Assembly (NCBI GenBank): GCA_031412945.1
Contig: JANODY010000006.1
Span: 35,224-99,223 of the forward strand
DNA: 64,000 nt
Direction: 5' to 3'
Source: Cyanobacteria bacterium SOY_65_metabat_81
GTDB lineage: Bacteria > Cyanobacteriota > Cyanobacteriia > Pseudanabaenales > Pseudanabaenaceae
Positions 7,587-45,536 of this stretch are shown piece by piece. Position numbers and translations under genes: made by a program. Below the pieces are notes generated by a model. The model was not told where the DNA came from and did not search any database. It was given only the letters and a program-made list of their open reading frames with translations. The first letter of the stretch is position 1. Every line of letters starts with the position of its first letter.

Positions 7587-7648
7587 TGTTAATTGACGGT
7601 TATTTTAGGACAAATCAAAACCTTAAAAGCAAAAAGAGGCGCAAAGCG

Positions 7649-8245
7649 CTATCTTTTACTTTTGAGGTTGTATTCTTTAGCGAGCATAGCGACAGATTTA
7701 TTTTGGAATTGATTGAGTAGGTCAATGTGATCCGATCCTTGGGCGATCAATTGGATGATGCGGTCTTCGGGTAAATCTTCTAAAAAGTCTGGGTCTAGAT
7801 CTAGGTTTGTTTTTTTGAGATTTGGCGATCGCGTAGTTAATGTTGGGACTGAGATATTGATCTGAAGATGGTCATGCGGAATGTTTGATAATTTGCTTGC
7901 CCACTCGATCGCCACAATGCCAAGCGGGAAATCTTGACCGCGCCAATATTCTTCTAAATGTAGACTAGGCACTTGGATCGGTTCTAAGCGATAGAGATCA
8001 ATGTGGTATAGCGGCAAGCGTCCTTCGGTATACTCATCAATGAGCGTAAACGTGGGACTAGTTATGGTCGAGCTAATGCCGAGGGCGCGACCAAATGCTT
8101 GCATAAAAGTAGTTTTGCCACTGCCAAGGTTGCCATCTAGTAACATAATTGTGCCTACGGCGACAAGTTGGGCAAGTTGAGTGGCGATCGCTTGGGTTGT
8201 CCCAAGATTGTTAGCATAAATCTCAATGTTTACAGGCTCAGTCAT
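7649..8245 (-). CDS. tsaE: tRNA t6A biosynthesis ATPase TsaE, with a C-terminal extension of about 50 aa
   Basis: Walker A GNLGSGKTTF, SPTFTLIDEY, LYHIDLYRL. I prefer the start at MTEPVN (8245) because the track start overlaps moaC. Confidence 0.85.
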   Translation of the reverse strand: MTEPVNIEIYANNLGTTQAIATQLAQLVAVGTIMLLDGNLGSGKTTFMQAFGRALGISSTITSPTFTLIDEYTEGRLPLYHIDLYRLEPIQVPSLHLEEYWRGQDFPLGIVAIEWASKLSNIPHDHLQINISVPTLTTRSPNLKKTNLDLDPDFLEDLPEDRIIQLIAQGSDHIDLLNQFQNKSVAMLAKEYNLKSKR

Positions 8246-13856: not shown

Positions 13857-14300
13857 TCACTGTTTGGCAAAATCTTTCTCGGCATAAACCCGAAATCTAT
13901 CTAAATCAGCTTGAAGTGTGGATTCTACAATTTGCCCCAAAAATAAATTATCCATAAGCTGCCCGATCGCAGGAATTGCATAGGAAATGCTCAACTTCAC
14001 GATAGTCATATTATTAGGACGACCGTAAAATCTCACCGCGCCGCGATTGGGCAGTCCACTAACTGACTCCCACTGAATAATTTGATTGGGAATTTGTTTA
14101 AGAATCCTAGATTTCCAAGTAAAAGTTAGCCCTGAAGTGCCAAGCTTCCAAGCAGATACTTCAGGATCGGAAGTGATCACCACAGAGTCAATCCACTTCA
14201 TCCAACGGGGCATCGCCTGTAAGTCTGACCACAATGACCACGCATATTCCACGGGAATAGTTACTTCAGTTTGGACGGTATGTTCTAGCCAATCGCTCAT
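13857..14300 (-). CDS. SRPBCC (cyclase/dehydrase) family protein
   Basis: 147 aa with a typical N-terminus ...VEYAWSLWSDLQAMPRWMKWIDSV. Confidence 0.8.
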   Translation of the reverse strand: MSDWLEHTVQTEVTIPVEYAWSLWSDLQAMPRWMKWIDSVVITSDPEVSAWKLGTSGLTFTWKSRILKQIPNQIIQWESVSGLPNRGAVRFYGRPNNMTIVKLSISYAIPAIGQLMDNLFLGQIVESTLQADLDRFRVYAEKDFAKQ

Positions 14301-14573
14301 TGAATAATGGTTACTAATTTTGCTTGATGTATTGATATACAGGCGGCGCTTTGCACTTTCTTAAAACCCAATAAGTTTCTCGAAACGCTTGCTAAGCAAT
14401 TCTTTTAAGAAACTCAATTAATGCTAATACTATAGCAAACTCTAATAGTCAAGCCCCACCCAATTAATAATCAACCTGACTTCATAGATCTGAGAATGAT
14501 CTAGACTAAATGACAACAATCGTAATAAACTGTAGGTTACGTTATAGCTAGTTGACCGCTGGAAGAGTTTGTT

Positions 14574-16924: not shown

Positions 16925-16965
16925 AAATATAAAAAAGTGGCGCAAAGCGCCGCTTGTTTATATTT
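16925..16965. terminator. Bidirectional terminator
   Basis: AAATATAAA...GTGGCGC-AAA-GCGCCGC...TTTATATTT, a nested hairpin between mreD and the convergent nuclease gene. Confidence 0.7.
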
Positions 16966-16978
16966 GGTTTTAAAAAAT

Positions 16979-19157: not shown

Positions 19158-19264
19158 AAGTAGCTAGGCGCAATTAAATATAAAACCAAAACCGAGACCT
19201 GTAGCACACGCGTAGCCTGCGCTACAGGTTTTAGAGTTTTATATTTAATTAAGCTCACTTACTT
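19158..19264. mobile_element. MITE-like element, family A, copy 1
   Basis: Terminal inverted repeats AAGTAGCTAGGCGCAATTAAATATAAAAC / GTTTTATATTTAATTAAGCTCACTTACTT around the hairpin CCTGTAGC...GCTACAGG. Related copies lie at 45399-45499 and 53703-53805. Confidence 0.75.
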
Positions 19265-19369
19265 ACAAAGCTTAACTTATTGAGTCAGAGACTAGGTTTT
19301 GTTATATATTTTGTTAAGTGGACTGGCTCAAATGCAGCAGATCTCGCTTCAATCTTACCAAAAAAAATT

Positions 19370-22300
19370 ATGAAAATCCTTCATGGTACTTGGATTCCTG
19401 ATCACAATGATGAGTTTATCCAAGGTGGTAATTTTTACATTTGGGTAGAGACAACTGAAACCAAGGCGATCGCCACCAAGCGCAAGTCACCTAAGCAGAA
19501 AACCGCCGATCTAGAGCGATCGGCGGAAAAGCATCCTGCGAGCATGGCTGAATCAGATTTAAAGGGCTTTCTTTGGAAGGATTTGGGGATTAAAGACGAG
19601 CTTTTGCAAGAACCAGATTATAGGTATGTCAGCAAAAGTTTTAAAAAAGATAAAATTATTTTTCCGAAATATTTTTTGCTGCCCACCAGTAACTTACAGC
19701 CGTTACCTTCTCTAGAGTCGGCGCGATATTTAGAAGTTGACATCCCCGAAAACTTTGAACTCCAGTACTGGCAAGTTGACTGCTATCAAGTTACGACTTC
19801 TGTTAAATTCAGTACCTACATATCTAAACGGGCAGTTAATGTTGTCAAATTGCTGAATGATTTACATTTCATCGCCATTAATAATCTTGCCGATGTGCAG
19901 CTAGGTGCGGATTTGCTTTTCTGGTATCACTACACCCAAGCCTTTAAGCAAATCATTCTCAAAGATCAATATATTCCCGCTTTTAAATATCGGGAACTTG
20001 CCGTTCAAGCCACAAAATCGACTAAAGCCGCGAAAACTTCAACAAAAACTTCGGCAAAAGCGAAAAAAGAAGCCCTGCAAACTCCCAAATTTGAAATTTA
20101 TCCTGCATGGGAAATTATTTCTGAGCAGTACGAAACAGAACTAGAGCAGTATGTGGAATATATGCCATTGGTTTGTGTTTCAGGCTTTAGCGAACTTGGG
20201 GATCAGCCGCAATTTTTCGATCGCCACAGCCTATTACAGCATTTCTCCGAATCGTTGCTACATAGCATTGTTACCCACACCCCATCGACTGCTCAATTTG
20301 ATAAGCAAGTAAGTGAGTCTCTATTACAAAAATGTCTGGATTTTTCTGATGATCATTTTGGCGATCCGATGATTGCTAATGATGCAGCTTTAGAAGAATA
20401 TCAACAGTGGCAAAGATGGCAACACAAAATCAATCGCACCCTGTCGGATTCACCATTTTATCTCTGCTTTCAACTCCAAACTCCGCTAAAGGAAGAAGAA
20501 CCTTGGCAACTACAATTTCTGATCTCGCCAAAACAAGACCCGTCATCAAAAATGTCTTTAGCCGATTATTGGGCAATGACTGCGGCAAAAAAGAAGGCTA
20601 CAGAAAAGCAGTTTGGCAAAGAGTTTGAGCAAAATCTCTTACTAAATCTAGGTTATGCGGCGCGAATTTATAATCAGATTTGGGAAGGATTGGAAACCGA
20701 TCGGCCGATTGGTTTAAGCCTCAATATCGATCAAGCCTTTGAGTTTCTGAAGGAATCAGCTTGGATTTTAGAAGATGCTGGTTATAAAGTGGTTGTGCCT
20801 GCTTGGTGGACACCTATAGGGCGACGACGCGCCAAAATGCGCCTGAAAGCATCGGGCAAAAGTAAAAGCAGCAGTAAAACTCAAGCCAAGAGCTACTTTG
20901 GGTTCGATCAGCTTGTGGAATATCAGTACGAATTGGCGATCGGCGATGAAACCATCTCAGTTCAGGAATGGGAGCAGTTGATCATCGCAAAAGCGCCATT
21001 GGTCAAGTTTCGCGGTGAGTGGATGGAACTCGATCGCGACAAAATGCAAGAGATGCTGACTTTTTGGCAACAACATGGTCAAGAGAAGCCAGAAATGAGT
21101 CTGATTGACTTTATGCAATTGACCGCAAGTGATCCTGATTTGGAGGTCGATCACGATAGTACCCTTGCCGAGATGATGGCAAAGTTGCAAGATAAGCAGC
21201 AATTTGAACCAATCGAAAATCCACCACAACTCAATGGCACTTTGCGAGAATATCAAAGACGCGGTGTGGCTTGGTTGCAATATTTAGAAAGCCTTGGCTT
21301 AAATGGTTGTCTTGCTGACGATATGGGCTTAGGTAAAACCGTGCAGATTATTGCCCGACTGGTCAATGAGAAAGCCGAAATTAATGCAGAAATTAGTGAG
21401 ATCCCAGAAAATCCTAAAGCCAAAAAATCCACAAAAACAACCAAAACCAAAAAAACTAGCGCTCCATTATCAAATTCTATTTTCAAGCCCACCTTGCTGA
21501 TTGCGCCGACATCGGTGGTCGGGAATTGGCAAAAGGAAATCGAAAAATTTGCGCCACATTTACGGGCGATCGTACATCATGGAGGCGATCGCCTCCATGA
21601 CGCAGCCGCCTTTGAAAAAATCTGTCAAACTCACGATCTGATCATTACTTCCTTCACTCTAATTCGCAAAGATGAAGCTCTGTTTGGTGGCGTAAACTGG
21701 CATCGCATTGTGCTTGATGAAGCTCAAAACATCAAAAATCCTAAAGCTGCCCAAACTAAGGCAATCCTTAAACTAGAATCCAAACATCGCCTTGCGCTCA
21801 CAGGTACACCTGTGGAAAATCGACTATTAGATCTATGGTCAATTTTTAACTTTCTCAATCCGGGATATTTAGGCAAAGAAGCACAGTTCAAGAAATCTTT
21901 TGAAACTCCAATTCAAAAAAATAACGATCAAATCCAAGCAGGTGTTCTCAAAAAATTAGTCGAGCCATTCATTTTGCGGCGTGTCAAAACCGATCAATCC
22001 ATCATCAAAGACCTGCCCGACAAAATCGAACAAAAACTCTACACTAACCTCACCAAGGAGCAAGCTTCGCTCTATGAAGCAGTGGTTAGGGATGTGGAGA
22101 ATCAACTCAATGAAGTAGAAGGTATTCAGCGAAAGGGTTTAATTCTATCCACATTGCTGAAGCTCAAACAGATTTGCAATCATCCCCGTCAGTTTTTGCA
22201 AGATGGTAGCGACTTCACAACCGAGCGATCGCATAAACTTAGTCGTCTATCCGAAATGGTCGAAGAAGCAATTTCGGAAGGAGAAAGCCTCTTAATCTTT

Positions 22301-22771
22301 ACTCAATTTACCGACATTGGCGATGCTCTAGAAAAACATCTGCGCCAAAAGCATCATTACAACACCTACTATATTCACGGCGGCACAAATCGCGATAAAC
22401 GCGAACGGATGATTACGGAGTTTCAAGATCCTGAAACTGAGCCTTCGGTGTTTATTCTCTCCCTCAAAGCGGGTGGTGTCGGCATTACGCTGACCAAGGC
22501 AAACCACGTCTTCCATTTCGATCGCTGGTGGAACCCAGCTGTTGAAGACCAAGCCACCGATCGCGCCTTTCGGATTGGTCAAAAGAAGAATGTGTTCGTG
22601 CATAAGTTTGTGACGATTGGCTCTCTAGAGGAGCGCATCGACCAAATGATTGAGGATAAAAAGAAACTCGCGGGTGCGATCGTGGGTGCTGATGAGTCTT
22701 GGCTCACGGAGCTAGACAACGACAAGTTTAAGCAGCTTATTGCTTTGAATAAGAGTTCAATTATGGATTAA
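19370..22771 (+). CDS. SNF2/RAD54-family helicase with a long N-terminal SNF2-associated region
   Basis: Motif I DDMGLGKT, motif II DEAQNIKN, LTGTPVENRL, C-terminal QATDRAFRIGQKK. Two Lys/Thr-rich low-complexity inserts. ATG at 19370 (MKILHGTWIPD) is preferred. Confidence 0.9.
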   Translation: MKILHGTWIPDHNDEFIQGGNFYIWVETTETKAIATKRKSPKQKTADLERSAEKHPASMAESDLKGFLWKDLGIKDELLQEPDYRYVSKSFKKDKIIFPKYFLLPTSNLQPLPSLESARYLEVDIPENFELQYWQVDCYQVTTSVKFSTYISKRAVNVVKLLNDLHFIAINNLADVQLGADLLFWYHYTQAFKQIILKDQYIPAFKYRELAVQATKSTKAAKTSTKTSAKAKKEALQTPKFEIYPAWEIISEQYETELEQYVEYMPLVCVSGFSELGDQPQFFDRHSLLQHFSESLLHSIVTHTPSTAQFDKQVSESLLQKCLDFSDDHFGDPMIANDAALEEYQQWQRWQHKINRTLSDSPFYLCFQLQTPLKEEEPWQLQFLISPKQDPSSKMSLADYWAMTAAKKKATEKQFGKEFEQNLLLNLGYAARIYNQIWEGLETDRPIGLSLNIDQAFEFLKESAWILEDAGYKVVVPAWWTPIGRRRAKMRLKASGKSKSSSKTQAKSYFGFDQLVEYQYELAIGDETISVQEWEQLIIAKAPLVKFRGEWMELDRDKMQEMLTFWQQHGQEKPEMSLIDFMQLTASDPDLEVDHDSTLAEMMAKLQDKQQFEPIENPPQLNGTLREYQRRGVAWLQYLESLGLNGCLADDMGLGKTVQIIARLVNEKAEINAEISEIPENPKAKKSTKTTKTKKTSAPLSNSIFKPTLLIAPTSVVGNWQKEIEKFAPHLRAIVHHGGDRLHDAAAFEKICQTHDLIITSFTLIRKDEALFGGVNWHRIVLDEAQNIKNPKAAQTKAILKLESKHRLALTGTPVENRLLDLWSIFNFLNPGYLGKEAQFKKSFETPIQKNNDQIQAGVLKKLVEPFILRRVKTDQSIIKDLPDKIEQKLYTNLTKEQASLYEAVVRDVENQLNEVEGIQRKGLILSTLLKLKQICNHPRQFLQDGSDFTTERSHKLSRLSEMVEEAISEGESLLIFTQFTDIGDALEKHLRQKHHYNTYYIHGGTNRDKRERMITEFQDPETEPSVFILSLKAGGVGITLTKANHVFHFDRWWNPAVEDQATDRAFRIGQKKNVFVHKFVTIGSLEERIDQMIEDKKKLAGAIVGADESWLTELDNDKFKQLIALNKSSIMD
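22558..22771 (+). repeat. Direct repeat copy 1 (functional 3' end of the SNF2 gene)
   Basis: Collinear with 25582-25795 at an offset of exactly 3,024 bp. The first 93 bp are identical and the remaining 121 bp have 13 substitutions. Confidence 0.95.
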
Positions 22772-22844
22772 GGAATTAAAAAGTTTGTATGCGAAAATAA
22801 ATCAGACTTACAGAACTAAACCAATAATTTACGAGATAGATCTG

Positions 22845-23162
22845 ATGATTGTCCAAATTCCTGAACCATTGAAAATCCTTGATTCTCTCTATTTAAAAGG
22901 CTATCGCAGTAGTTTAATTGATCGCTCCCTCACCAAAATTATTGAGCTAGAAAAAGCAAATACCATCAAACAAGCTTCTGAACTTCAATCAAAATTACAG
23001 GCTTATGAGCTTCAATATCAAATGCCTTCAGAGATTTTCTATCAAAGATTTAGCGCAGGTAGTTTAGGTGATGAGATGGATTATTTTGAATGGGATGTTA
23101 TTTATGAGCTTTGGCAATCTGTGCAAGAGCGTTTGCAGGTTTTGCAGCCAAACAGACAGTAA
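22845..23162 (+). CDS. Small coiled-coil protein, putative antitoxin partner of the downstream TumE-like gene
   Basis: 105 aa from the ATG at 22845. Its stop is 5 nt before the next ATG. Function is inferred from the pairing only. Confidence 0.6.
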   Translation: MIVQIPEPLKILDSLYLKGYRSSLIDRSLTKIIELEKANTIKQASELQSKLQAYELQYQMPSEIFYQRFSAGSLGDEMDYFEWDVIYELWQSVQERLQVLQPNRQ

Positions 23163-23167
23163 TCATT

Positions 23168-23554
23168 ATGGAATCTGGTCAATATCTTGAAAATATTAAG
23201 TCTAGACTGATTGCCAGCAATGCGATCGCTGCTTTTACAATTGTTGAAGAATTAGATCTTGGCGATCGCGGTTATTTTCGGGCAAGGGTGACGCTCAGTA
23301 ATGATGACTTTTTGGAAGTTGCTGAGTATTTTAAAATTACGGAGAATGTTGTGACAACAACGAGGTATCGCTATCAGTGGATGGACTGCGATCGCGCTAA
23401 TTTACGCAAACGTTGGGACAATGTGCCGCATTTTCCAAATCTGCCTAATTTTCCGCATCATATTCATGTTGAGTCAGAGGAAAATGTTATTTCAGGTAAT
23501 TCGTTAAGCATTCAGGATCTTTTAGATATTCTCGAACAAGAGATTGAGTTTTGA
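23168..23554 (+). CDS. DUF6516/TumE-family toxin-like protein
   Basis: Core RYRYQWMD...RWDNVPHFPNLPNFPHHIHV matches my recollection of the family signature (WDNAPHH...FPHHKH). Confidence 0.65.
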   Translation: MESGQYLENIKSRLIASNAIAAFTIVEELDLGDRGYFRARVTLSNDDFLEVAEYFKITENVVTTTRYRYQWMDCDRANLRKRWDNVPHFPNLPNFPHHIHVESEENVISGNSLSIQDLLDILEQEIEF

Positions 23555-23707
23555 TCGCCTGAATAAAACTGAAATTTAAAGCCATTAATGATCTTTGATG
23601 GCACGGCGATCGCTGCCTCAATTAGATTTTACCTTTGCTAATTTTATAAATACTTGTAATTTACTCGAAATCTAACGATAATGTGATGATTCGCGATTTG
23701 TAACATT

Positions 23708-25339
23708 ATGACCGATCCCTTAGCTGAAAAAATTGGTATTAACGTGCAGGGCGGTACTGTGAATGTACAGAACCTCAATATTGGGATTGCCGAAAGGCTT
23801 GCAGAGTCAGGCGATCGCGTCAGAATTTTGGTAGTAGCAGCTAACCCTTTGGGATCGTCTCCTTTGAAGCTGGATCATGAGGTGAAAACCATCCAAGAGG
23901 CGTTAAGGCGATCGCGCAAACGTGATAATTTTGTGGTGGAATATCGGCTGGCGGCTACTCCTTCAGAATTGCGGCGTGCTTTGTTGGATGTGGAACCCCA
24001 TGTTTTGCATTTTAGCGGTCACGGTTCGGGGGAGAAGGGGCTGTTATTTGTGAGTGATGAGTCGGCTGGGGCGATCTATCGTTCGGATAGTGGGGAGGTG
24101 CGATCGCGTTCGACTAGCAGCAACGAGATTAAATTTGTACCCGCGCAACCACTGGCGAATTTGTTGCAGCTTTGTGATGAGCATTTGGAATGTGTGGTTT
24201 TGAATGCTTGTTATTCGGATGTGCAGGGTGATGCGATATCGGTAAATATTCCCTTTACGATTGGGATGCGTGATGTGGTTGAGGATAATGTGGCGATTAA
24301 GTTTTCGCAGGGGTTTTATGATGCGATCGGTGCGGGTAAGGGTTATGAGAAGGCTTTTGAATGGGGGAAGGTGGCGATCTCGTTCGATCTGGCAAATGAG
24401 GAAGCTGCAAGGATTTTGGTGTTACGAAGAAAAGGAGAAACAACACAGATTATTGAAGAAACTACAACAAATGTAGATTCAAGCAGAACTATTAACCCTG
24501 AAATTTTGCCAGCCGATAATAACAATTTTTTCTCTGGACTTAAAAAGCTATTTACTCCTTCATTAAGTGCTAATGATTATTTTGATCGCGCTCACGAAAA
24601 ACAAAATAGAGGAGATAAACAAGGAGCGATTACCGACTACAGCGAAGCCATCCGCCTCAATCCCAATTATGCACAAGCTTACAACAATCGTGGGCTTGCA
24701 AAAAATAATATAGGAAATAGGCAAGGTGCAATACTTGATTATAACGAAGCCATACGCCTCAACCCGAAGTATTCACTCGCTTATTATAATCGTGGTCTTG
24801 TAAAGTATAAATTGGAAGATAAACACGGTTCTATTGCTGATTACAATAAATCGATTCGTCTTAATCCAGATTTTGCTGATGCTTATAACAGTCGTGGTAT
24901 TGCAAAAAGACATTTAAATGATATTCATGGATCAGTAATGGATTACAGTGAAGCAATTAGTCTTAGTCCAAACTTCGCTATTGCTTACCACAATCGCGGG
25001 TTAGCAAAGTCTGCATTAGGAGACAAAGAAGGAGCGATCGCCGACTACAAGGAAGCCATTCGCCTCAATCCTAATTATGCTGAAGCTTATTATAGTCGTG
25101 GGATAGTGAAGTCTGAGTTAGGAGACAAACAAGGAGCGATCGCCGACTACAACGAAGCCATCCGCCTCAATCCTAATTTTGCTGCTGCCTACTACAATCG
25201 CGGGTTAATCAAAAAAGAAAGAGGTGAAAAACAAGAAGCATTGGCAGATTTTCGGAAAGCATCGGAACTCTATCAACAGCAAGGGAATACAGAATGGTAT
25301 AACAACTCTCGCGATAGGATTAGAGAGCTAGGAGGCTAG
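23708..25339 (+). CDS. CHAT (caspase-like) domain protein fused to about 7 TPR repeats
   Basis: His/Cys dyad contexts VLHFSGHG and CVVLNACYS after ILVVAANP...LKLDHEVKTIQEAL. The C-terminal half has 34-aa repeats AIxDYxEAIRLNPNYAxAYxNRG. Confidence 0.85.
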   Translation: MTDPLAEKIGINVQGGTVNVQNLNIGIAERLAESGDRVRILVVAANPLGSSPLKLDHEVKTIQEALRRSRKRDNFVVEYRLAATPSELRRALLDVEPHVLHFSGHGSGEKGLLFVSDESAGAIYRSDSGEVRSRSTSSNEIKFVPAQPLANLLQLCDEHLECVVLNACYSDVQGDAISVNIPFTIGMRDVVEDNVAIKFSQGFYDAIGAGKGYEKAFEWGKVAISFDLANEEAARILVLRRKGETTQIIEETTTNVDSSRTINPEILPADNNNFFSGLKKLFTPSLSANDYFDRAHEKQNRGDKQGAITDYSEAIRLNPNYAQAYNNRGLAKNNIGNRQGAILDYNEAIRLNPKYSLAYYNRGLVKYKLEDKHGSIADYNKSIRLNPDFADAYNSRGIAKRHLNDIHGSVMDYSEAISLSPNFAIAYHNRGLAKSALGDKEGAIADYKEAIRLNPNYAEAYYSRGIVKSELGDKQGAIADYNEAIRLNPNFAAAYYNRGLIKKERGEKQEALADFRKASELYQQQGNTEWYNNSRDRIRELGG

Positions 25340-25581
25340 AGAAGGAAAAAGGGAAAAGGGAAAAGTTTAAAATAGCAGTCAAATTAGTGAATATTAGGAG
25401 TCTAAAGTGATGCGGAAACGGTAGAACGCACTGAAGATGCTGAGGTTGGGAGTAAAGGTGGTCTCGATAAACTGGTTGGAGCATTGACGGCTGAGATTAA
25501 GTTCGACAAAGTAATCGGCTTTTTTAGTTTTGTCGGTGAGAAATTTGAGGAAAAGCCGATCGAAGTCCATGTGAAGGTGGG

Positions 25582-25795
25582 CGATCGCGCCTTTCGGATT
25601 GGTCAAAAGAAGAATGTGTTCGTGCATAAGTTTGTGACGATTGGCTCTCTAGAGGAGCGCATCGACCAAATGATCGAAGACAAAAAGAAACTCGCGGGTG
25701 CGATCGTTGGTGCAGATGAGTCTTGGCTCACGGAGCTAGATAATGACAAGTTTAAGCAGCTTATTGCGCTGAACAAAAGTGCGATTATGGATTAA
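25582..25795 (+). pseudogene. Orphan 3' fragment of an SNF2 helicase gene (direct repeat copy 2)
   Basis: Encodes DRAFRIGQKKNVFVHKFVTIGSLEERIDQMIEDKKKLAGAIVGADESWLTELDNDKFKQLIALNKSAIMD*. It has no helicase sequence upstream. Confidence 0.9.
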
Positions 25796-25960
25796 AAACT
25801 GATGTTGCGGAAATCTCCTCTGCTGCGGGTCAAGTATACTTGCACTGTCGTTTTTACGAACGAACAAAGCCAAGTTAGCTAGCGATCGCGAATTATTCAG
25901 ATTAGCAGTCGCATAATTGGCTAGATTTAATGGCTAAAGCTGCAAAAGCTGTAAACTAGA

Positions 25961-27493
25961 GTGGCAAAGTTTACAGTCTTGCAAGACAGTCTTGCAAGTA
26001 TGGGTTATTTAACCTATTCACGACTCCTTATGCAAATGCGATCGCGATTTTCTCGGCTATTTTATTGGGTGCTATTTTGCGGGGCGATCGCCATTGCTAT
26101 CAGTGCCTGTCAAGCTAAAGCAGGGATAGTTTCTGTATTACCACAGCATCCCAATATTCAAGTATTTTTTAATCAAAATCAGGCGGCTCGATATACTGAC
26201 CCCTACCGCAACATTGAACGGCTTGGCGACAATCTGGAAAGGGTGCTGATCGATAATGTTAGTCAAGCCAAGATTAGTTTAGATATTGCTGTTCAAGAGT
26301 TGCGGTTACCAAATATTGCCAAGGCGATCGTTGATGCAAAATTACGCGGTGTCAATGTTCGGCTGATTCTCGAAAATAATTACAGTCGGGCTTGGAGTGA
26401 GTTTACCCCAGTCCAGATTGAGAAGATGAATGCACGCGATCGCGATCGCTACCAAGAATTTCAAAAATTTGCAGATATCAATAAAGATGGCAGCTTAAGT
26501 GAAAATGAACTTGATCGTCGTGACGGACTGCGATTAATCAAAGGAGCTAATATTGCTTGGCTTGACGATACTGCCGATGGCTCGAAAGGTAGTGGATTGA
26601 TGCATCATAAGTTTATGGTGATTGATGATCAGCTTGTTTTATTTGGTTCAGCCAATCTGACCATGAGCGACATTCATGGCGATTTTACCAAACCTGATAC
26701 TAGAGGAAATGCCAATAATCTGGTGCGGGTTGATAGCAAAGAATTGGCTAAGCATTTTAAAAAAGAATTTAATATCATGTGGGGCGATGGACCTAGTGGC
26801 AAACTTGATAGCTTATTCGGCTCTAAAAAACCATCTCGCAAAATCGATTATTTAGTAGTCGGAGGGGCGCAACTCCGTATCAAATTTTCTCCAGATCCTG
26901 AAAATACCGCTCGCGAGCAAACTAGTAATGGACTGATCGCCACGGCGATCGCAGGAACTAAAAAGACTGTTGATATGGCTTTATTTGTCTATTCCGAAGA
27001 GTTTATTTCCACAATTCTCGAAGAACGCCAACAAAATAATGTCCAGATTCGGGCGCTAATTGAACCTCAATTTGCCTATCGAGATTATGCGGCAACCCTT
27101 GATATGTGGGGATTACAATCTACACAAGATTGCAAAACAGGCAAAAGCAGTGCATGGCAACAACCACTTAAAACGGTCGGTATTCCTAACCTCATCGCTG
27201 GCGATACTCTGCATCACAAGTTCGCCATTCTCGATCGCAACTTAATTCTTACAGGTTCGCATAACTGGACTAATGCCGCTAACCATATCAATGATGAAGT
27301 TTTAGTGGCGATTCAAAATGAGACTGTGGCAAAGCATTACCAAAGGGAATACGATCGCCTGTATCAAGATGTCACCCTTGGTCCAACTGCAAAATTAGTG
27401 CAAGCTAGTTCGCAAAGCTGTACGGAAAGGGTTAAGGAAAAGTCCAAACCAAACTCTAGATCAAACGATATTGACGAGCCAAATTCTGATTGA
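25961..27493 (+). CDS. Phospholipase D-family (two HKD motifs) protein, probably a lipoprotein or membrane-anchored, with an EF-hand insert
   Basis: HKD motifs HHKFMVIDDQLVLFGSANLT and HHKFAILDRNLILTGSHNWT. Lipobox-like AIAISAC. EF-hand loop DINKDGSLSENE. The start is uncertain (GTG 25961 or ATG 26000/26030). Confidence 0.85.
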   Translation: MAKFTVLQDSLASMGYLTYSRLLMQMRSRFSRLFYWVLFCGAIAIAISACQAKAGIVSVLPQHPNIQVFFNQNQAARYTDPYRNIERLGDNLERVLIDNVSQAKISLDIAVQELRLPNIAKAIVDAKLRGVNVRLILENNYSRAWSEFTPVQIEKMNARDRDRYQEFQKFADINKDGSLSENELDRRDGLRLIKGANIAWLDDTADGSKGSGLMHHKFMVIDDQLVLFGSANLTMSDIHGDFTKPDTRGNANNLVRVDSKELAKHFKKEFNIMWGDGPSGKLDSLFGSKKPSRKIDYLVVGGAQLRIKFSPDPENTAREQTSNGLIATAIAGTKKTVDMALFVYSEEFISTILEERQQNNVQIRALIEPQFAYRDYAATLDMWGLQSTQDCKTGKSSAWQQPLKTVGIPNLIAGDTLHHKFAILDRNLILTGSHNWTNAANHINDEVLVAIQNETVAKHYQREYDRLYQDVTLGPTAKLVQASSQSCTERVKEKSKPNSRSNDIDEPNSD

Positions 27494-27512
27494 AAAACTT
27501 GTTTTCCATTCT

Positions 27513-29498
27513 TTACCAACTGCGACCATTGACCGATCGCCTCAAACCAGAAGCCCCAAATCCGACTAATTCCATCTCTTTGTTGATCAGATTGTCGTTG
27601 ATCGGATTAGAATTATTTGTTAGCTCCTGACGTTGATCATCCTGATATTTTTTCTCGTCGCGAAGCAATACGGTTCGCAAGGCCCTTACTATAGATCTCT
27701 GAGCGAGTTTAGACAGGACATCGCGTCCAAAGTTAAGCGTTTGTGGCTTGCTGAGAATCCTTGTCGCGAGGGGCAGAATATCAGTGGGCGCGATCGCTTT
27801 ATCAGTTTGCAAAATTGTCCACAACTTGGCGATATGACTCAAACTTGATTGAGTTTCGGTGACTTTTTCCTTAATATTGCCATCAGCTACCATATCGCCG
27901 ACTGGCTTATCTCCAATTAACAAATTGCGTAATCTTTCGGGCAATCGTTTACTAGTTTCGACTTCTATCCCTTTGACAATCTCATCGATGATGCGATCGT
28001 GCATAAATTCACTGCGTTCAGAAAATAGAAATTCAAGCCCTTTATCGAGAGTTCCATTTAGGCTGTAGTCTGGGTTGATCTGAGCATTGCTTAATAGATT
28101 TTCTAAACGATTCCAGCGAAATTCACCATCACGGAAGAGTAAATCTTTGAGGGCTATTGTCAGTTCAGGTGAAGAGTCATTTAACAGACGATTTGCCACA
28201 TAGGGATAAGCGACTTCTAAAACTTTAAATTTGGGATCGACACTAAAAGCAATTCCTTCCAAAGTGACCAGCGATCGGATAATTAGCGCATAGTAAGCTG
28301 GAACTTGAAATGGATAGTCATACATGATCTGCGAAAGTTGATCAGTCATGTCTTTAAAATTCATTTGGGTCAAGCTCTGACCTTCGGGCGGATTGAATAC
28401 TTGCGATAGAGCAGGCACGATCGCCCCAAAGTCAATATCTTCAGTCAGAAAGCCTAGACGGACATAATCTTTTGATAGAGCGTCAAAATCACGATTAACC
28501 AAATGGACAATCGCTTCAATCAGTCCAAAACGCTGCTCGGCGGAAACTTCGCTCATCATCCCAAAGTCAAGGTAGGCTAGCTTGCCATCACCCATGACTA
28601 ACAAATTACCTGGATGCGGATCAGCGTGAAAATAGCCATAGTCAAGCAATTGTCGTAAAGAGCATTGCACCCCGACCTCAATGACATGACGACTATCAAA
28701 ACCCGCCTCTTTGACCTTCTGAACATTGGTGAGCTTGATTCCTTCAATCCATTCCATAGTCAACACCCGTTTAGCGGTGTAGTTCCAATAGATCTTGGGA
28801 ACGTAGATTCCTTCTAGTTGTCCATAGTATTTAGCAAATTTTTCCGCATTTTGACCTTCAAAGGTATAGTCCATTTCTTCAAAGATGCGGCTAGCAAACT
28901 CATCAAGGATCGCCGCTAAATCAGTACGAATAAATTTAAAGGTCTTTTTTAACCATGTGCCAATGCCGCGCAAGATATACATGTCAAGGGCAATACCTGC
29001 GGCAATGTCAGGACGTTGGACTTTGATGGCGACGAGTTCACCTGTTTTTAGCCGCCCCTTATAGACTTGTCCCAATGAAGCTGCGGCGATCGGATTGTCC
29101 GAGATTTCGGCATAAACTTCTAATGGGTCGGCTCCTAATGCATCTCGAATAAATTGAAAAGCGATCGCATTAGGAAATGGCGGCAGTTGATCTTGCAATT
29201 CAGCCAATTCGTCCATAAATACTGGCGGCACGATGTCAGGGCGGGTCGAGAGGGCTTGACCGATTTTGATAAAGGCTGGTCCCAGTCGAGTCAATAATTT
29301 ACGCGACTCGATCGCCAGTTTACGCATTTGGGCTGCTGAAGCTTTAGCACTAAGTCTTAGTCTCAGCAACAACCAAATAAGAGGTACAAAAATTACTATG
29401 CACCGCCACCAGACCCGCAACGGTTGGTTACGATAATAATCGGCGATCGCCTTAACGTCATAGCGATCTAACTCAAAGTCTGGTTTATTAGCAGGCAT
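27513..29498 (-). CDS. ABC1/UbiB (AarF) atypical kinase family protein
   Basis: 661 aa. Contains IAAASLGQVYKGRL, VAIKVQRP and HADPHPGNL. Confidence 0.9.
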   Translation of the reverse strand: MPANKPDFELDRYDVKAIADYYRNQPLRVWWRCIVIFVPLIWLLLRLRLSAKASAAQMRKLAIESRKLLTRLGPAFIKIGQALSTRPDIVPPVFMDELAELQDQLPPFPNAIAFQFIRDALGADPLEVYAEISDNPIAAASLGQVYKGRLKTGELVAIKVQRPDIAAGIALDMYILRGIGTWLKKTFKFIRTDLAAILDEFASRIFEEMDYTFEGQNAEKFAKYYGQLEGIYVPKIYWNYTAKRVLTMEWIEGIKLTNVQKVKEAGFDSRHVIEVGVQCSLRQLLDYGYFHADPHPGNLLVMGDGKLAYLDFGMMSEVSAEQRFGLIEAIVHLVNRDFDALSKDYVRLGFLTEDIDFGAIVPALSQVFNPPEGQSLTQMNFKDMTDQLSQIMYDYPFQVPAYYALIIRSLVTLEGIAFSVDPKFKVLEVAYPYVANRLLNDSSPELTIALKDLLFRDGEFRWNRLENLLSNAQINPDYSLNGTLDKGLEFLFSERSEFMHDRIIDEIVKGIEVETSKRLPERLRNLLIGDKPVGDMVADGNIKEKVTETQSSLSHIAKLWTILQTDKAIAPTDILPLATRILSKPQTLNFGRDVLSKLAQRSIVRALRTVLLRDEKKYQDDQRQELTNNSNPINDNLINKEMELVGFGASGLRRSVNGRSW

Positions 29499-29623
29499 AG
29501 CATTCTCGTAGACTCAGTTCCATAACAGTAATCTTCATTGCGCTTATTGAAACGAAGATTACGTTGTTATTTTAACAATCTGTAACACAATTCGGGATAG
29601 CTCTCTAGGCTTATGTTTTGAAC

Positions 29624-29661
29624 AAAAAAAAGATGTGCGGCGATGCCGCACATCTTTTTTT
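29624..29661. terminator. Hairpin terminator, apparently terminating the STAS gene (the adjacent ABC1 gene is co-directional and its start, not its end, lies here)
   Basis: A-run, then AGATGTGCGGC-GAT-GCCGCACATCT, then a T-run. Confidence 0.7.
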
Positions 29662-29685
29662 CTTTTTTGATTGGAAACTGCGTGT

Positions 29686-30111
29686 TTAAGCTGCAACTAG
29701 ACAGGCAGAAGCTTGGTGTTTAGCATCAAACTGATCCATAAACTCATCAACACTAGGAAAGATGGCAAATAGTTGATCAATTCTTGAGATTTCAAATACA
29801 AATCTAATAGAGGATTGTTGAGAACACAGTAATAAATTACTGTGTTGAGCTTGCATTAATCTGAGCGCGGCTAACAGTTTTTGTAAACCCTGACTGTCGA
29901 TAAACTCTACATTTCCCATGTCAACTATCAAAACAGGAATTTCTTTGTTATTCATCATCATATTGGCTGAAACCCACGATTCAACCTTAGCCAATAAATC
30001 GGATCCCGCAAAGCTATCGAATTTATTACTGGTCAATTTAATAATAAAAGCTGGATCGCTATTTAACCCATGACGGAAGGATGACTGGTTGATCTTAGTA
30101 ATTGTATCCAT
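29686..30111 (-). CDS. STAS domain protein (anti-sigma-factor antagonist-like)
   Basis: VLIVDMGNVEFIDSQGLQKLLAALRL. ATG at 30111 is preferred over the TTG at 30126. Confidence 0.8.
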   Translation of the reverse strand: MDTITKINQSSFRHGLNSDPAFIIKLTSNKFDSFAGSDLLAKVESWVSANMMMNNKEIPVLIVDMGNVEFIDSQGLQKLLAALRLMQAQHSNLLLCSQQSSIRFVFEISRIDQLFAIFPSVDEFMDQFDAKHQASACLVAA

Positions 30112-30319
30112 TGTTCTTCCTTGCAAATTTTTTAGAGAATAATAGTCTGATTTCTAAGTCGCATTGGTGAGAACAACATCTACATCTTGTTTCACAATGT
30201 CAACAAATGTTTTATTGTCTCTTGAGCCTTATTATTCACTTTTTTCTAAACGATGAAACATCCAAGAGATATATAAAAGTTAGTAAGAAAGATTAAAAGG
30301 TTATATAAAAGTTACTTTT

Positions 30320-30377
30320 TTGACAATCTTCAGCCTAAAGGCGTGAGGATTGCTGATTCAGCGAGACAACTTACCAA
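30320..30377 (-). mobile_element. Orphan copy of the tnpB right-end / omega-RNA 3' module
   Basis: On the minus strand it shares TTGGTAAGTTGTCTCGCTGAATCAG (25/25) with 4619-4643, then a hairpin with compensatory changes, then TGTCAA. There is no tnpB alongside. Confidence 0.7.
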
Positions 30378-30393
30378 ATAGACCATTATTATT

Positions 30394-30439
30394 TATAGCA
30401 ATCCTGAATGATTTATAGCTTTTTAAGAGTTGTGAGAGG
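30394..30439. repeat. Degenerate fragment of MITE family B
   Basis: TATAGCAATCCTGAATGA...GAGTTGTGAGAGG matches the reverse complement of the right arm of copy B2 (CCTCTCACAACTCATTTAGGATTGCTATA). No second terminus is present. Confidence 0.55.
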
Positions 30440-30467
30440 CAAAAGATTTGTCAGCCAGTCAGGAGAT

Positions 30468-31862
30468 TTAGACTAGTTCCCCAAATAGGTCGTAGTGATC
30501 GGCGGCGGTGATTTTGACAGAAAACATTGAGCCTAGCGTGGCTTTGCCTTGTGGGTCGCGGATATAGACGACACCATCCACATCAGGGGCAAATCTTGCC
30601 GATCGCCCAATTAGTTCGCCCGTATCGGGATTTTCCTGTTCGATCAAGACATCAACGGTTTTACCGATTTCGGCTTGGTTGTTTTTGAGCGAGATCTCTT
30701 GTTGGGCGGCCATGAGGCGATCGCGGCGCTCTTGTTTGACTTCTTCGGGGATTTGATTAGGCAAATCAAAGGCGGCTGTCCCTTCTTCGGCGGAGAAAGT
30801 AAATACGCCGACATGATCGAACTCATGACGCTTCACAAATTCTAATAAATGCTCGAACTGCTCTTCGGTTTCATCGGGAAAACCAACAATAAAAGTGGTA
30901 CGGGTGACGGCGTTAGGGAGCGCCGCTTTGATTTGTTCAACGATCTTGTCATTGATCCGCCCTTGCCAAGGACGATTCATCGCTTTTAAGACTTCGGGAT
31001 GGGAGTGTTGTAAAGGCAGATCAAGATAAGGAACCACATTAGGCGTGGACTTCATGGCGTTGATTACCTTCGGGGTCAGCCCTGTGGGGTAAGCATAATG
31101 CATTCTGATCCAAGGCACATCGACCTGACCGAGGGCGGTTAATAGTTCGGCTAGGCGCGGCTGACCGTAAATATCTAAGCCGTAATTAGTCGTAATTTGA
31201 GAAATTAAAATAATCTCTTTTACGCCCTCAGTGGCGAGGCGATCGCACTCAGTCACAATCGACTCAATAGTTCGCGATCGCTGATCCCCGCGTAAATGGG
31301 GAATGATGCAAAAAGCACAACGATAATCACAGCCCTCCGCCACGCGCACATAGGCGACCGCCTCATTGGTGGTGCGATAGCGCGGCACAGTGTCATCAGC
31401 GATATAGGTAGGAACGGCGGTGATCTCTTTGACCCGCTCCCCTGTTTCGGCGCGTTCGATCACATCGACAATTTTGTAATAGTCCCCCGTTCCGACTAGG
31501 GCAACAGCTTCAGGGATTTCATCAAGTAGTTCTTGTTGAAAGTGTTGCGCCATACAGCCAGCGATCACAATGCGTTTGCCCATTTCTGCAAGCTCTACCA
31601 AAGTTCGCACCGATTCTTGACGGGCATCTTCGATAAAGCTACAGGTATTAACGATCACATAATCGGCTAATTCTTCATTGCTATCGACTTGATAGCCAGC
31701 CTGCACTAACAATCCCAACATGTGTTCGGTATCGACGCGGTTCTTTTCACAACCCAAATGAGAGAAAGCGATCGTGGGCTTGATCGTAGCTTTGACGGTT
31801 GGAACCAGATTGACCATATTTGTATTAACGTAATCTTTGACGCGCAAAATTTCAATTGACAT
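30468..31862 (-). CDS. rimO: Ribosomal protein S12 methylthiotransferase
   Basis: UPF0004 N-domain LGCEKN, radical-SAM CDYRCAFC, C-terminal TRAM domain. Confidence 0.92.
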
Positions 31863-32065
31863 TCCTTAGTCTGAAGACGTAAGGATTCTTGGACTCACTA
31901 TCGCCTGTAGGACTTGTCCTAACATGGTTAGTGGTATCTAGTCTTTCAACTAGCTTTTCAAGCGTGAATTTCCGTATGCCCTGCGGTATTGGCTATATTA
32001 TAATGTAAAGCCGTGCTAGAAGCACGGGGTTTCAAAGCCAATTTTCCGATAACCTTTACAAATTC

Positions 32066-33508
32066 ATGTCTGTTCGAGTTCGCATTGCACCAAGCCCCAC
32101 GGGTAATCTACACATCGGCACAGCCCGCACTGCCATATTTAATTGGCTCTATGCTCGTCACCACAAGGGGACATTTATTCTTAGGGTCGAAGATACCGAT
32201 CGCGAAAGATCTAAGGATGAGTATACTCAAAATATTTTGGAAGGCTTGGCTTGGTTAGGAATTGATTTTGATGAGGGACCATTTTTTCAAACCCAACGTA
32301 GCGATCGCTATATTGCCACTGTCGAGAAGCTGCTAGCTGACAAGAAAGCTTATTTTTGCTACTGCACTGAAGCTGAGCTAGATGCCATGCGCGAAGCTCA
32401 AAAAGCGAATAAACAAGCCCCCCGCTACGACAATCGCCATCGCAACTTGACTGACGAGCAACGTCAAGCATTTGCGGATGAAGGTCGTCGCCCCGTGATC
32501 CGCTTCATCATCGAGGAGCCGCGCACGGTTGCATGGAATGACCTAGTACGCGGCACGGTGTCTTGGAGCAGTAGCGATCTTGGCGGTGATATGGTGATCG
32601 CCCGTGTGGATGAGCAAGGCAATATCGGCTTACCTTTGTATAACTTTGCCGTGGTCGTTGATGATATCGATATGGAGATCACGCAAGTAATTCGTGGGGA
32701 AGATCATATTGCGAATACGGCTAAGCAGATTTTGATTTATGAAGCCTTAGGAACTACGCCGCCACAGTTTGGACATGCGCCGCTAATTCTCAATCAACAA
32801 GGCGCAAAAATTTCTAAACGTGATGGCGCAACTTCCGTTTGGGAATTTCGGAACATGGGCTATATTCCTGAAGCTTTTAATAATTATATGGCGCTGCTGG
32901 GTTGGTCGCCTAGTGATGGAAAAGAGCTATTTACGATGCAAGAAGCCGCCCAGATTTTTAGCTTCGATCGCGTCAATAAGGCGGGTGCGAAGTTCGATTG
33001 GGATAAACTCAATTGGATTAATAGTCAATATTTGCACTCATTACCAACAGAAGATGTTTGCGATCGCCTGACTCCATTTCTAAAGGAAGCTGGCTATGAT
33101 TTGGAATCTGTCGATCGCCAATGGTTGCTAGATCTCACCAAATTGATCGCGCCAAGTTTAACGGTGCTGACCGATGCCGCCAAGATTAGCAAGTTCTTCT
33201 TCACGGAGTTTGAAGACTATACCGATGAGGCGAAAACAACTCTGCAAGGTGATGCGATCGCAGGTATTATCACGGCTCTGATCGCAGCACTCACAGAAAC
33301 TTCAGATCTTGATGCGGATATTGCGGGTGAAGTAATCAAGACGGTCACTAAATCACAGGGCGTTAAAAAAGGCGTAGTTATGAAATCTTTACGGGCGGCG
33401 CTCACAGGCGATCTGCATGGTCCCGAAATTTTGCCCACCTTTGTGCTGCTCCATCGTCAAGGCTTGGCTTTATCCCGTTTGCAACGAGCAATGAGTACTC
33501 ATATATAA
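32066..33508 (+). CDS. gltX: Glutamate--tRNA ligase
   Basis: RIAPSPTGNLHIG (HIGH motif), KISKRDG (KMSKS-type motif). Confidence 0.95.
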   Translation: MSVRVRIAPSPTGNLHIGTARTAIFNWLYARHHKGTFILRVEDTDRERSKDEYTQNILEGLAWLGIDFDEGPFFQTQRSDRYIATVEKLLADKKAYFCYCTEAELDAMREAQKANKQAPRYDNRHRNLTDEQRQAFADEGRRPVIRFIIEEPRTVAWNDLVRGTVSWSSSDLGGDMVIARVDEQGNIGLPLYNFAVVVDDIDMEITQVIRGEDHIANTAKQILIYEALGTTPPQFGHAPLILNQQGAKISKRDGATSVWEFRNMGYIPEAFNNYMALLGWSPSDGKELFTMQEAAQIFSFDRVNKAGAKFDWDKLNWINSQYLHSLPTEDVCDRLTPFLKEAGYDLESVDRQWLLDLTKLIAPSLTVLTDAAKISKFFFTEFEDYTDEAKTTLQGDAIAGIITALIAALTETSDLDADIAGEVIKTVTKSQGVKKGVVMKSLRAALTGDLHGPEILPTFVLLHRQGLALSRLQRAMSTHI

Positions 33509-33514
33509 CGTCGA

Positions 33515-33693
33515 TTTATGTAACTCATGTTACGCAGAGCGAAGATCTACCCTCATCCCCCAGCCCCTTCTCCCAGAGCGGGAGAAGGGGAGAAAGAGTC
33601 GCTTTTGAATTTTTCTTGTTCCCCTCTCCCTTTTTGGGAGAGGGGCTAGGGGTGAGGGTCTTAGAACCTTCTGCGTAAGGTGAGTTATGTAAA
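33515..33693. repeat. 179-bp nested palindromic element (MITE-like)
   Basis: Outer arms TTTATGTAACTCATGTTACGCAGAG... / ...CTTCTGCGTAAGGTGAGTTATGTAAA. Two inner hairpins: CCCCTTCTCCC-AGAGC-GGGAGAAGGGG and CCCCTCTCCC-TTTTT-GGGAGAGGGG. Confidence 0.75.
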
Positions 33694-33709
33694 ACCAAAA
33701 AAATAAAAA

Positions 33710-33726
33710 GTGGCGCGAAGCGCCAC
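33710..33726. terminator. Terminator hairpin between the convergent gltX and fur genes
   Basis: GTGGCGC-GAA-GCGCCAC with A/T-rich flanks. Confidence 0.6.
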
Positions 33727-33754
33727 GACGTTATATTTCATTTTTTTGTTTTTT

Positions 33755-39539: not shown

Positions 39540-39641
39540 TATAGCAATCCTAAACGAATTGTGAGTAGGGGCAATTCATAAACTGCCCCTACTCACAAAG
39601 ATGACAAAATATTTTGATACATATCATTTCGGATTGCTATA
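39540..39641. mobile_element. MITE-like element, family B, copy 1
   Basis: Termini TATAGCAATCC...GGATTGCTATA. The core is the 36-bp palindrome GTGAGTAGGGGCAATTCATAAACTGCCCCTACTCAC (39561-39596). Confidence 0.75.
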
Positions 39642-45398: not shown

Positions 45399-45499
45399 AA
45401 GTAAATAAGCGCAATTAAATATAAAACCAGAACCGAAACCTGTGGCGCAGCGTGCGCCACAGGTTTTAGGATTTTATATTTAATTAAGCCAACTTACTT
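45399..45499. mobile_element. MITE-like element, family A, copy 2
   Basis: AAGTAAATAAGCGCAATTAAATATAAAAC...core CCTGTGGCGCA-GCG-TGCGCCACAGG...GATTTTATATTTAATTAAGCCAACTTACTT. Confidence 0.75.
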
Positions 45500-45536
45500 A
45501 AGTAACATTTAGTAATAATCAGGAGCTTTGCGCGAT

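Follow-up and report, generated by a model that had tools for sequence, protein, structure and literature searches.

A 64,000-nucleotide (nt) stretch of contig JANODY010000006.1 from Cyanobacteria bacterium SOY_65_metabat_81 (assembly GCA_031412945.1), referred to throughout as the window, carries an intact SNF2-family helicase gene whose last 214 nt are repeated downstream of a predicted toxin-antitoxin pair and a gene for a caspase-like CHAT protein. We conclude that this locus is an ordinary recombination scar left by the import of DNA from another Pseudanabaena, and not a new mobile element; the import probably proceeded, in our confident view, through one homologous and one illegitimate joint. 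The scar is a natural record of an event in which a relative, probably by way of a plasmid-borne locus, supplied a cyanobacterium with a toxin-antitoxin pair and a caspase-like protease; the conserved end of a neighbouring gene was the sole anchor, and mobile-element machinery was uninvolved. It can be read closely, with the exchange point placed to within 8 nt, the illegitimate joint to the base, and the donor gene order visible in a relative.

A repeat search identified the two copies in direct orientation (22558-22771 and 25582-25795), each 214 nt long, gapless, 94% identical, and spaced by 3,024 nt; ATG GAT TAA terminates both. Base-by-base comparison of copy 1 with copy 2 shows 13 mismatches and no indels. 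The mismatches (copy 1 positions 22651, 22654, 22657, 22684, 22690, 22717, 22720, 22744, 22745, 22750, 22753, 22757 and 22759) all fall within the last 121 nt, which are 11% diverged, and the first 93 nt contain no differences at all. Homology opens abruptly at C22558/C25582 (CGATCGCGCC), and the preceding 39 bases cannot be aligned.

Twelve codons are altered between the copies, 11 synonymously and one as a TCA/GCG (Ser/Ala) exchange. Random single-base changes in the distal 40 codons are synonymous in 20% of cases, giving a probability of 2e-7 for 11 or more synonymous changes among 12, and the probability that all 12 altered codons fall inside the distal 121 of the 214 nt is 1e-3. Because of this synonymous excess and distal clustering, both ends must have evolved inside working genes; they are two selected alleles of one helicase gene end, and neither copy is simply a decayed version of the other. 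An initial annotation, made from the sequence alone, had reported a 214-bp direct repeat at 3,024 spacing and had read its ends as two diverged but selected alleles; the coordinates, the 93/121 split, the 13 differences and the codon pattern were all reproduced, and the excess of synonymous changes agrees with the reading.

Which of the two ends is foreign was judged by comparison with relatives. The best homologues of the helicase are those of Pseudanabaena (83% amino acid identity), and the source organism itself is Pseudanabaena-like. As a reference we used the consensus of L001, L083 and L084, the nearest three of the helicases compared as DNA. The helicase body differs from this consensus at 75/679 positions, the 93-nt tract at 14/93 in both copies, and the distal part of copy 2 at 12/121, which is similar to the helicase body. 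The distal part of copy 1 differs at 6/121; it is as near to the three reference helicases as these are to one another, and is distinguished from the upstream portion of its own gene by a Fisher test (p = 0.026). At the 13 sites that differ between the copies, copy 1 has the clade consensus at nine, copy 2 at three, and neither at one. For the 93-nt tract the data reject an origin of donor type (14/93 versus 6/121 in the imported part, P = 2e-4).

By these affinities the intact helicase gene is a chimera, native to about 22642 and clade-type, presumably imported, from 22651 onwards. It is very probable that the distal end of copy 1 is the foreign one and that the orphan, which begins within helicase motif VI (DRAFRIGQ), is the displaced original end of the recipient. 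Two further claims of the initial annotation are thereby supported: that recombination within the helicase 3' end let foreign DNA in while the open reading frame (ORF) stayed intact, for which the switch in affinity at 22643-22650 provides the evidence, and that an orphan 3' fragment was left behind, since 25582-25795 is native-type and corresponds to the displaced end. The features of the locus and of analogous repeats in other genomes are listed in Table 1.

Table 1. Features of the helicase locus in the window, with the gene-end repeats of three other contigs. Positions refer to the window unless a locus is named; nt, nucleotides; aa, amino acids; MAG, metagenome-assembled genome.
Feature	Position	Strand	Remarks
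Intact SNF2-family helicase gene	19370-22771	+	1133 aa from ATG at 19370; ORF; Pfam DUF3670, SNF2-rel_dom and Helicase_C
Copy 1 of identical tract (93 nt)	22558-22650	+	Native-type divergence from other Pseudanabaena; same differing sites as copy 2
Homologous exchange interval (8 nt)	22643-22650	.	Last native-specific site 22642; first donor-type site 22651
Putative imported helicase 3' end	22651-22771	+	40 codons and stop; 93-96% identical to L001/L083/L084
Spacer, helicase stop to tumA-like gene	22772-22844	+	73 nt; same spacer after helicase on ABRG53f
tumA-like antitoxin gene (predicted)	22845-23162	+	105 aa; NCBIfam TumA 34.9 bits, under equivalog cut-off (100 bits); PADLOC PDC-M44A
tumE toxin gene (predicted)	23168-23554	+	128 aa; PF20126 TumE 77.7 bits, cut-off 23.4; PADLOC PDC-M44B
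tumE downstream stretch	23555-23621	+	Common to L176-L178; collinearity stops at 23621/23622
CHAT (caspase-like) and seven-TPR gene	23708-25339	+	543 aa, intact; Pfam CHAT 38.4 bits and TPR families; PADLOC chat
Purine-rich CHAT-TPR trailer	25340-25383	+	44 nt; common to paralogue locus L174
Internal fragment of small-protein gene	25406-25582	+	Cut at both ends; about residues 38-98 of about 133; phmmer
Chimeric ORF, TTG start	25484-25795	+	103 aa; small-gene fragment fused in frame to helicase end; no Pfam match
Illegitimate junction	25581-25588	.	Perfect HIP1 octamer GCGATCGC straddles 25581/25582
Orphan: putative displaced native helicase 3' end	25582-25795	+	71 codons and stop; native-type throughout
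Post-orphan sequence (75 nt)	25796-25870	+	Terminator-like hairpin 25824-25844; putative native helicase trailer
PLD-like gene	25961-27493	+	Conserved chromosomal Pseudanabaena gene; outside the event
L005 repeat (281 nt)	10919-11199 and 12246-12526		Thermosynechococcaceae MAG; brackets DUF6036 nucleotidyltransferase gene and 97-aa gene, minus strand
L106 repeat (456 nt)	11595-12050 and 13997-14452		Metagenome contig; brackets AAA_15 ATPase (423 aa) and 141-aa gene
L104 repeat	4007-4339 and 6282-6614		Related strain, same insert as L106; further deletions at repeat edges

The gene order in relatives bears on both borders of the insert. Across some 170 genomic and metagenomic helicase loci, a SWIM zinc-finger gene as a rule follows the helicase stop codon within about 9-60 nt. 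This helicase-SWIM pair is often plasmid-borne in relatives, including on circular plasmids in Pseudanabaena, and does not stand beside the PLD-like gene; neither a SWIM gene nor a remnant of one is present anywhere in the window. On plasmid ABRG53f of Pseudanabaena sp. ABRG5-3 the helicase end, a 73-nt spacer and a tumA-like gene are collinear with 22403-23210 of the window at about 90% identity (90% by blastn for 22772-23210 against 11376-11815 of the ABRG53f locus, L083). There the tumA-like gene is followed by the decayed remains of tumE and of the start of a CHAT gene, and then by a TPR gene, three small genes and the SWIM gene; the helicase end is not duplicated on the plasmid. The left border of the insert is thus a natural gene adjacency in the genus rather than an element boundary. 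Since the same adjacency exists on ABRG53f without a duplication, the gene end and its neighbours would have been imported together, as an ordinary block. A cassette carrying a helicase fragment as a unit, as initially proposed, is contradicted by this undivided gene order and by the position of the right end inside a truncated gene.

What is left of the truncated gene at the right border is an interior piece of a gene for a small protein, which came to light solely in a profile-free protein search (phmmer, 1.84 billion representatives). The fragment matches P0361 (E = 7e-13, 66% amino acid identity) together with P0364-P0368, and at the DNA level positions 25340-25581 match none of the fetched loci, plasmid records and phage records. 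This segment had been described as unrelated to the helicase; it can now be divided into the 44-nt CHAT-TPR trailer and the small-gene fragment. Because the right end falls within a truncated gene, position 25581/25582 is an arbitrary, illegitimate joint of microhomology type inside a gene, with no cassette boundary. The joint forms an octamer of the highly iterated palindrome HIP1, GCGATCGC, where copy 1, the native-type helicase sequence, reads CCGATCGC; the probability that a random position touches a HIP1 is 0.018. The fragment reads GTG GGC GAT/CGC GCC across the joint, its homologue has GGC GAT in the same codons, and the helicase has ACC GAT CGC GCC. CGAT (25582-25585), present in both parents, is the minimum microhomology, and a length of 4-7 nt, CGAT(CGC), is suggested by the homologue, which stands in here for the donor. 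Were the donor small gene to have GGCGATCGC here, the full HIP1 core would be microhomology. The ORF that spans the joint, which public protein collections list as P0362, is probably no gene; the scar accounts for this spurious database protein, very likely an annotation artefact.

We propose that the donor had the gene order helicase, tumA, tumE, CHAT-TPR and small-gene remnant as its normal arrangement, one that is seen partly decayed on ABRG53f, and that about 2.93 kb of it (22651-25581, perhaps starting a few bases earlier) entered the helicase locus of the recipient via two joints. One would be the homologous exchange at 22643-22650, by which the last 40 codons were swapped for those of the donor with a single amino acid change. 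At the other, 25581/25582, the interior of the donor small gene would have been linked to the recipient helicase at CGATCGC, a 4-7 nt microhomology and a HIP1 site. The illegitimate joint would have fallen 93 nt upstream of the homologous one, and for that reason the last 214 nt of the recipient gene would be kept as an orphan with their first 93 nt doubled. Such a product could arise from a linear donor fragment that was anchored by one-sided homology and whose far end either was joined by microhomology to a second copy of the chromosome or reached it by template switching. Cyanobacteria are commonly polyploid. Because a non-circular route of this kind duplicates the 93 nt that lie between the joints, both copies of the tract would be native without any extra step. 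The cargo, a toxin-antitoxin pair and a CHAT-TPR protease of defence or addiction type, would then simply have been retained. Integration and bridging between chromatids has been documented during pneumococcal transformation, where it yields merodiploids (PMC3784515), and homology-facilitated illegitimate recombination (HFIR) has been proposed for displacement events in which downstream genes are retained (PMC5361080). The non-circular route taken by itself is a tentative choice, held a little short of even confidence; the combined statement, of two-joint import by a non-circular route, we hold to be evenly balanced.

Independent analogues were sought in related loci. A scan for further copies of the helicase end in 80 genome loci and 80 metagenome loci gave L005 only. 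When 175 loci were searched for self-repeats in general, one more case emerged, at the end of the SWIM gene in L106 and L104; the remaining repeats were tandem paralogues, dispersed short repeats, or resembled insertion sequences. In all there are three independent gene-end duplications in about 175 helicase loci and none in about 2 Mb of flanks. L005 has a second copy, 97% identical, of the last 281 nt of its helicase gene 1,327 nt downstream, on a contig that stops 71 nt past this copy; its nearest relative is only 76% identical in nucleotide sequence, so that native and donor ends are indistinguishable. The L106 repeat comprises the last 456 nt of the SWIM gene, with a 95% identical copy 2,402 nt downstream. 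Here 24 codons are altered (13 synonymously), evenly spread over the repeat, and the insert genes match the PADLOC candidate system PDC-M29 (PDC-M29A/B). In L104 a 72-nt deletion in copy 1 truncates the SWIM ORF at 151 amino acids, and the orphan is shorter. The 214-, 281- and 456-nt repeats all end at the stop codon, and they differ in left ends, junction sequences and cargo; recombination at a conserved anchor predicts such differing boundaries and cargo, and a site-specific element predicts the opposite.

Several points weigh against the explanation we prefer. Classical HFIR deletes recipient DNA, and here recipient DNA is duplicated; homologous pairing would have to act on an anchor that is 11-14% diverged. 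The direct contrast between copy 1 and copy 2 is not significant (Fisher p = 0.22), a sign test on the 9:3 split gives about 0.07 one-sided, and the roles of donor and recipient rest on just 121-214 nt of sequence. Neither a donor genome nor an empty site turned up, and exact-protein look-ups returned contigs of the same sample only. The two sides of the 93-nt tract are linked in the window assembly only. L005, finally, has mismatches at both ends of its repeat around an identical centre of 183 nt, and a crossover with heteroduplex repair therefore fits that locus better than a simple duplication.

The last observation is one of several in favour of a Campbell-type single crossover with a circular donor, either a self-closed 3-kb fragment or a whole helicase plasmid that was cointegrated and then trimmed, in the latter version by a deletion from the small gene to the equivalent of 22558 in the second helicase copy. 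A direct repeat of the homologous segment around an insert is the textbook product of such a crossover, the helicase locus is found on circular plasmids in Pseudanabaena, the repeat opens at a CGATCG palindrome that might mark the end of a cut and religated fragment, and most HFIR candidates in E. coli were single crossovers with circular plasmids that left duplications of 109-950 bp (PMC3240628). The initial annotation had proposed a crossover of this type inside the identical zone. The flanking repeat accords with that proposal, but reciprocal chimeras would then be expected, and the left 93 nt of the orphan are native-type where donor-type sequence is called for (14/93, P = 2e-4). On circular routes, heteroduplex repair or later gene conversion would have turned the first 93 nt of both copies native-type; such homogenization is plausible, but the conversion tract must then halt exactly at the crossover point. 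Moreover, a circle, remnants of a plasmid and the 5' part of a second helicase are all absent, and the small-circle version needs an illegitimate closure step regardless. We regard the circular donor as possible, if somewhat doubtful. A restriction-fragment circle opening at the CGATCG site, considered separately, found no support in the junctions of L005 and L106.

The other alternatives are far less probable. That an empty chromosome and a separate molecule, or a second strain, were threaded into one path by the assembler is very unlikely. In the Logan contigs of SRR20217196, L081 corresponds exactly to 22621-25611 and L082 to 25645-33550, and both junctions are found within this pair. The contigs end 30 nt inside the 93-nt tract, which is unavoidable in a k=31 graph; linkage across the tract is therefore not independently confirmed, and the break fits an integrated insert and a circle with an empty site equally. 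The 25581/25582 joint, however, is present in the reads of this independent assembly (L081), so the recombinant molecule is real; a mixture of two strains would not make that joint, a 3-kb circle without a replication gene could not persist, and the 93-nt tract is below ordinary read length and could be spanned by the assembler of the window. A site-specific integrative element that targets the helicase 3' end, with a replacement end in its attachment site and an integrase lost or acting in trans, would account for duplicated gene 3' ends at the insert borders, as is typical of integrase-borne islands, and for cargo of defence or toxin-antitoxin type. It is nonetheless highly improbable: the insert has no integrase, transposase or inverted repeat, its left border is natural in ABRG5-3 and its right border lies within a truncated gene, the independent events differ in repeat length (214, 281 and 456 nt), junctions and cargo, and the cargo genes are found elsewhere without helicase fragments. 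An old tandem duplication of the helicase, with most of the second copy deleted and cargo inserted between, is scarcely credible either. It would explain why divergence restricted to synonymous sites shows both ends to have once served functional genes, but tandem full-length SNF2 paralogues, which the initial annotation had named as an observation that would overturn its proposal, occur at 0 of the approximately 170 related loci, where the arrangement seen in the window is likewise not conserved; in addition, the intact gene switches phylogenetic affinity at 22643-22650, and 93 nt with no differences adjoin 121 nt at 11% divergence.

Among known systems, the nearest in outcome is the C-terminal displacement of rhs, cdiA and type VI secretion system effector loci (Jackson et al. 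2009, as cited in PMC5361080; Poole et al. 2011, PMC3150448), in which an incoming 3' end and its linked downstream genes recombine into the conserved part of a resident gene, and the resident 3' end survives downstream as an orphan after a short conserved stretch, with no dedicated recombinase. The foreign helicase end is likewise contiguous with foreign genes, and the former end is retained from the conserved part onwards. The two systems differ in that the helicase end is no polymorphic toxin tip, there is one orphan and no array, and the cargo includes no matched immunity gene; the helicase ends are not functionally distinct and differ by one residue. Because both ends encode the same peptide bar that residue, displacement would be a by-product of gaining the neighbours.

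In HFIR of naturally transformable bacteria (de Vries & Wackernagel 2002 and Prudhomme et al. 2002, as cited in PMC3784515 and PMC5361080), DNA that is for the rest non-homologous is gained through a homologous anchor at one joint and microhomology of a few bases at the other. The homologous junction at 22643-22650 and the microhomology joint at CGAT(CGC) correspond to these. Since the recipient has no second flank (there being no SWIM gene in the window), two-sided exchange was impossible. Unlike classical HFIR, no recipient DNA is deleted and 93 nt are duplicated, and the position of the joint 93 nt upstream of the exchange point suggests that a second chromosome copy or a template switch was needed. 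The L106 event, evenly diverged over its whole repeat, does fit the classical form. Campbell integration of suicide plasmids also yields an insert between direct repeats with the gene left intact and with duplications of 109-950 bp (PMC3240628). Of the reciprocal chimeras it predicts, however, the upstream copy fits and the downstream copy does not, as the expected orphan with a donor-type left part is not seen; conversion or heteroduplex repair would have to rescue it, and there is no evidence of a circle. Integrase-borne islands at attachment sites in tRNA or protein genes share the duplicated gene end at both borders of foreign DNA; they differ from the window, which has no recombinase among the ORFs of 17-30 kb, no recurring boundary, a long and partly diverged repeat, unconserved borders, and a natural left adjacency. 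Minimal mobile elements of Neisseria are variable cassettes that lie between conserved flanking genes and are exchanged by transformation. The helicase and SWIM genes are similarly the conserved flanks of a variable toxin-antitoxin or defence slot in many cyanobacteria. Minimal mobile element exchange uses both flanks and leaves no duplication; in the window only a single flank is available.

Toxin-antitoxin and defence inserts cluster at the helicase-SWIM junction, which is a hotspot for them. Its spacer is expanded by small inserts in many cyanobacteria (L001, L010, L017, L020, L026, L034, L041, L062 and L083), among them PIN/MazF toxin-antitoxin pairs, DUF29, Uma2 and NsnABC; a full NsnABC defence system is present in L001 and PIN and MazF pairs in L010 and L062. 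Other inserts encode a four-helix-bundle protein and a P450, and those of Pseudanabaena come after the stop codon and before the conserved ribosome-binding region of SWIM. A broader reading is that the helicase-SWIM pair serves as a recombinase-free landing pad for such genes and that HIP1 sites mark the ends of the imported tracts. If so, defence genes would pass between plasmid and chromosome by 3'-end displacement, in a manner like the formation of rhs and cdi orphans but on ordinary genes, and HIP1, acting like Chi or as a break site, would set the ends of imported tracts. Of five breakpoints in the window, three are no more than 11 nt away from a HIP1 (random chance 0.059 for each); the count was made post hoc, and the ends of BLAST alignments may drift towards conserved HIP1 sites. 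Recent work has suggested that HIP1 boosts transformation and recombination. Against the HIP1 part of this reading, no HIP1 is found at the junctions of L005, L106, L001 and L083, and jointly the two propositions are improbable. The scar could in any case guide experiments on integration by one-sided homology in polyploid, HIP1-rich cyanobacteria, and orphan gene ends are usable as markers of recent gene import.

A Pfam scan of all ORFs in 22772-25581 recovered only TumE, CHAT/TPR and the tumA-like protein. The initial statement that no integrase, transposase or terminal inverted repeats lie inside is borne out by the Pfam and repeat scans, in that no integrase or transposase is encoded in 22772-25581 and no inverted repeats flank the interval; scans for tRNA genes and Rfam families in the interval were also negative, and a scan of 22.5-26.1 kb for promoters and terminators gave no more sites than shuffled sequence. 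The tumA-like gene has an ortholog after the helicase in ABRG5-3 (WP_126391671.1). Its similarity to TumA is weak, and it ends 5 nt upstream of tumE, which scores 67 bits against the NCBIfam TumE model, short of the cut-off of 90. On the strength of the profile match and the small upstream partner, the two genes are predicted to form a TumE/TumA-type toxin-antitoxin pair; toxicity neutralized by the partner has been demonstrated for proteobacterial TumE-TumA members alone (PMC10584680). The CHAT-TPR protein contains the motifs HFSGHG and NACYS, and six TPR repeat units of 102 nt lie at 24610-25240 of its gene.

The window tumE is 93-94% identical in nucleotide sequence to metagenome contigs L176-L178, in which tumE is followed by a full-length small gene (133 amino acids) and then by a Peptidase_C14 caspase gene. 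Of this full-length small gene the fragment in the window is a more remote homologue (66% amino acid identity). The break in collinearity at 23621/23622 sits 8 nt past a HIP1 at 23606-23613. Compared with L176 (1-1697), the window has the CHAT-TPR block in place of the spacer and of roughly the first 37 small-gene codons. These arrangements suggest that modules of a small protein and a caspase or CHAT protein have been swapped beside tumAE. Paralogues of the CHAT-TPR gene (85-91% identity) are dispersed and lie beside unrelated genes, with no donor among them. A plasmid-borne, CHAT-less TPR gene of ABRG5-3 (L083:12043-13700) and a chromosomal CHAT-TPR gene (L175:6001-7700) have a common downstream DUF2281 gene region, and exchange of dispersed CHAT-TPR paralogues within the one ABRG5-3 genome is suggested.

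Part of the helicase gene (19370-22771) matches the NCBIfam model 'sll1366 family intein-prone helicase' at 267.6 bits, under its cut-off of 550, and this helicase contains no intein. Beyond the orphan, the hairpin at 25824-25844 is followed by a T-run and lies 29 nt past the orphan stop codon, consistent with a retained native helicase trailer. In Pseudanabaena relatives a 62-amino-acid ORF precedes the PLD-like gene and there is no helicase; synteny with the window starts only at 25871. Comparison of 27513-31854 with L170 and L173 shows that the radical-SAM MiaB-like and STAS genes past the PLD-like gene are inverted in the window, with a UbiB/ABC1 kinase gene between the PLD-like gene and the inverted genes, and that the 62-amino-acid ORF is absent. 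This segment was rearranged independently of the event at the helicase end. Short repeats that have G+C-rich hairpin cores and resemble miniature inverted-repeat transposable elements (MITE) or repetitive extragenic palindromes (REP) are dispersed between genes, at 19181-19265 and 45416-45500, at 39552-39596 and 58723-58767, and, as a third set, at 16925-16971, 33698-33744 and 7624-7670; one dispersed-repeat copy sits just upstream of the helicase gene.

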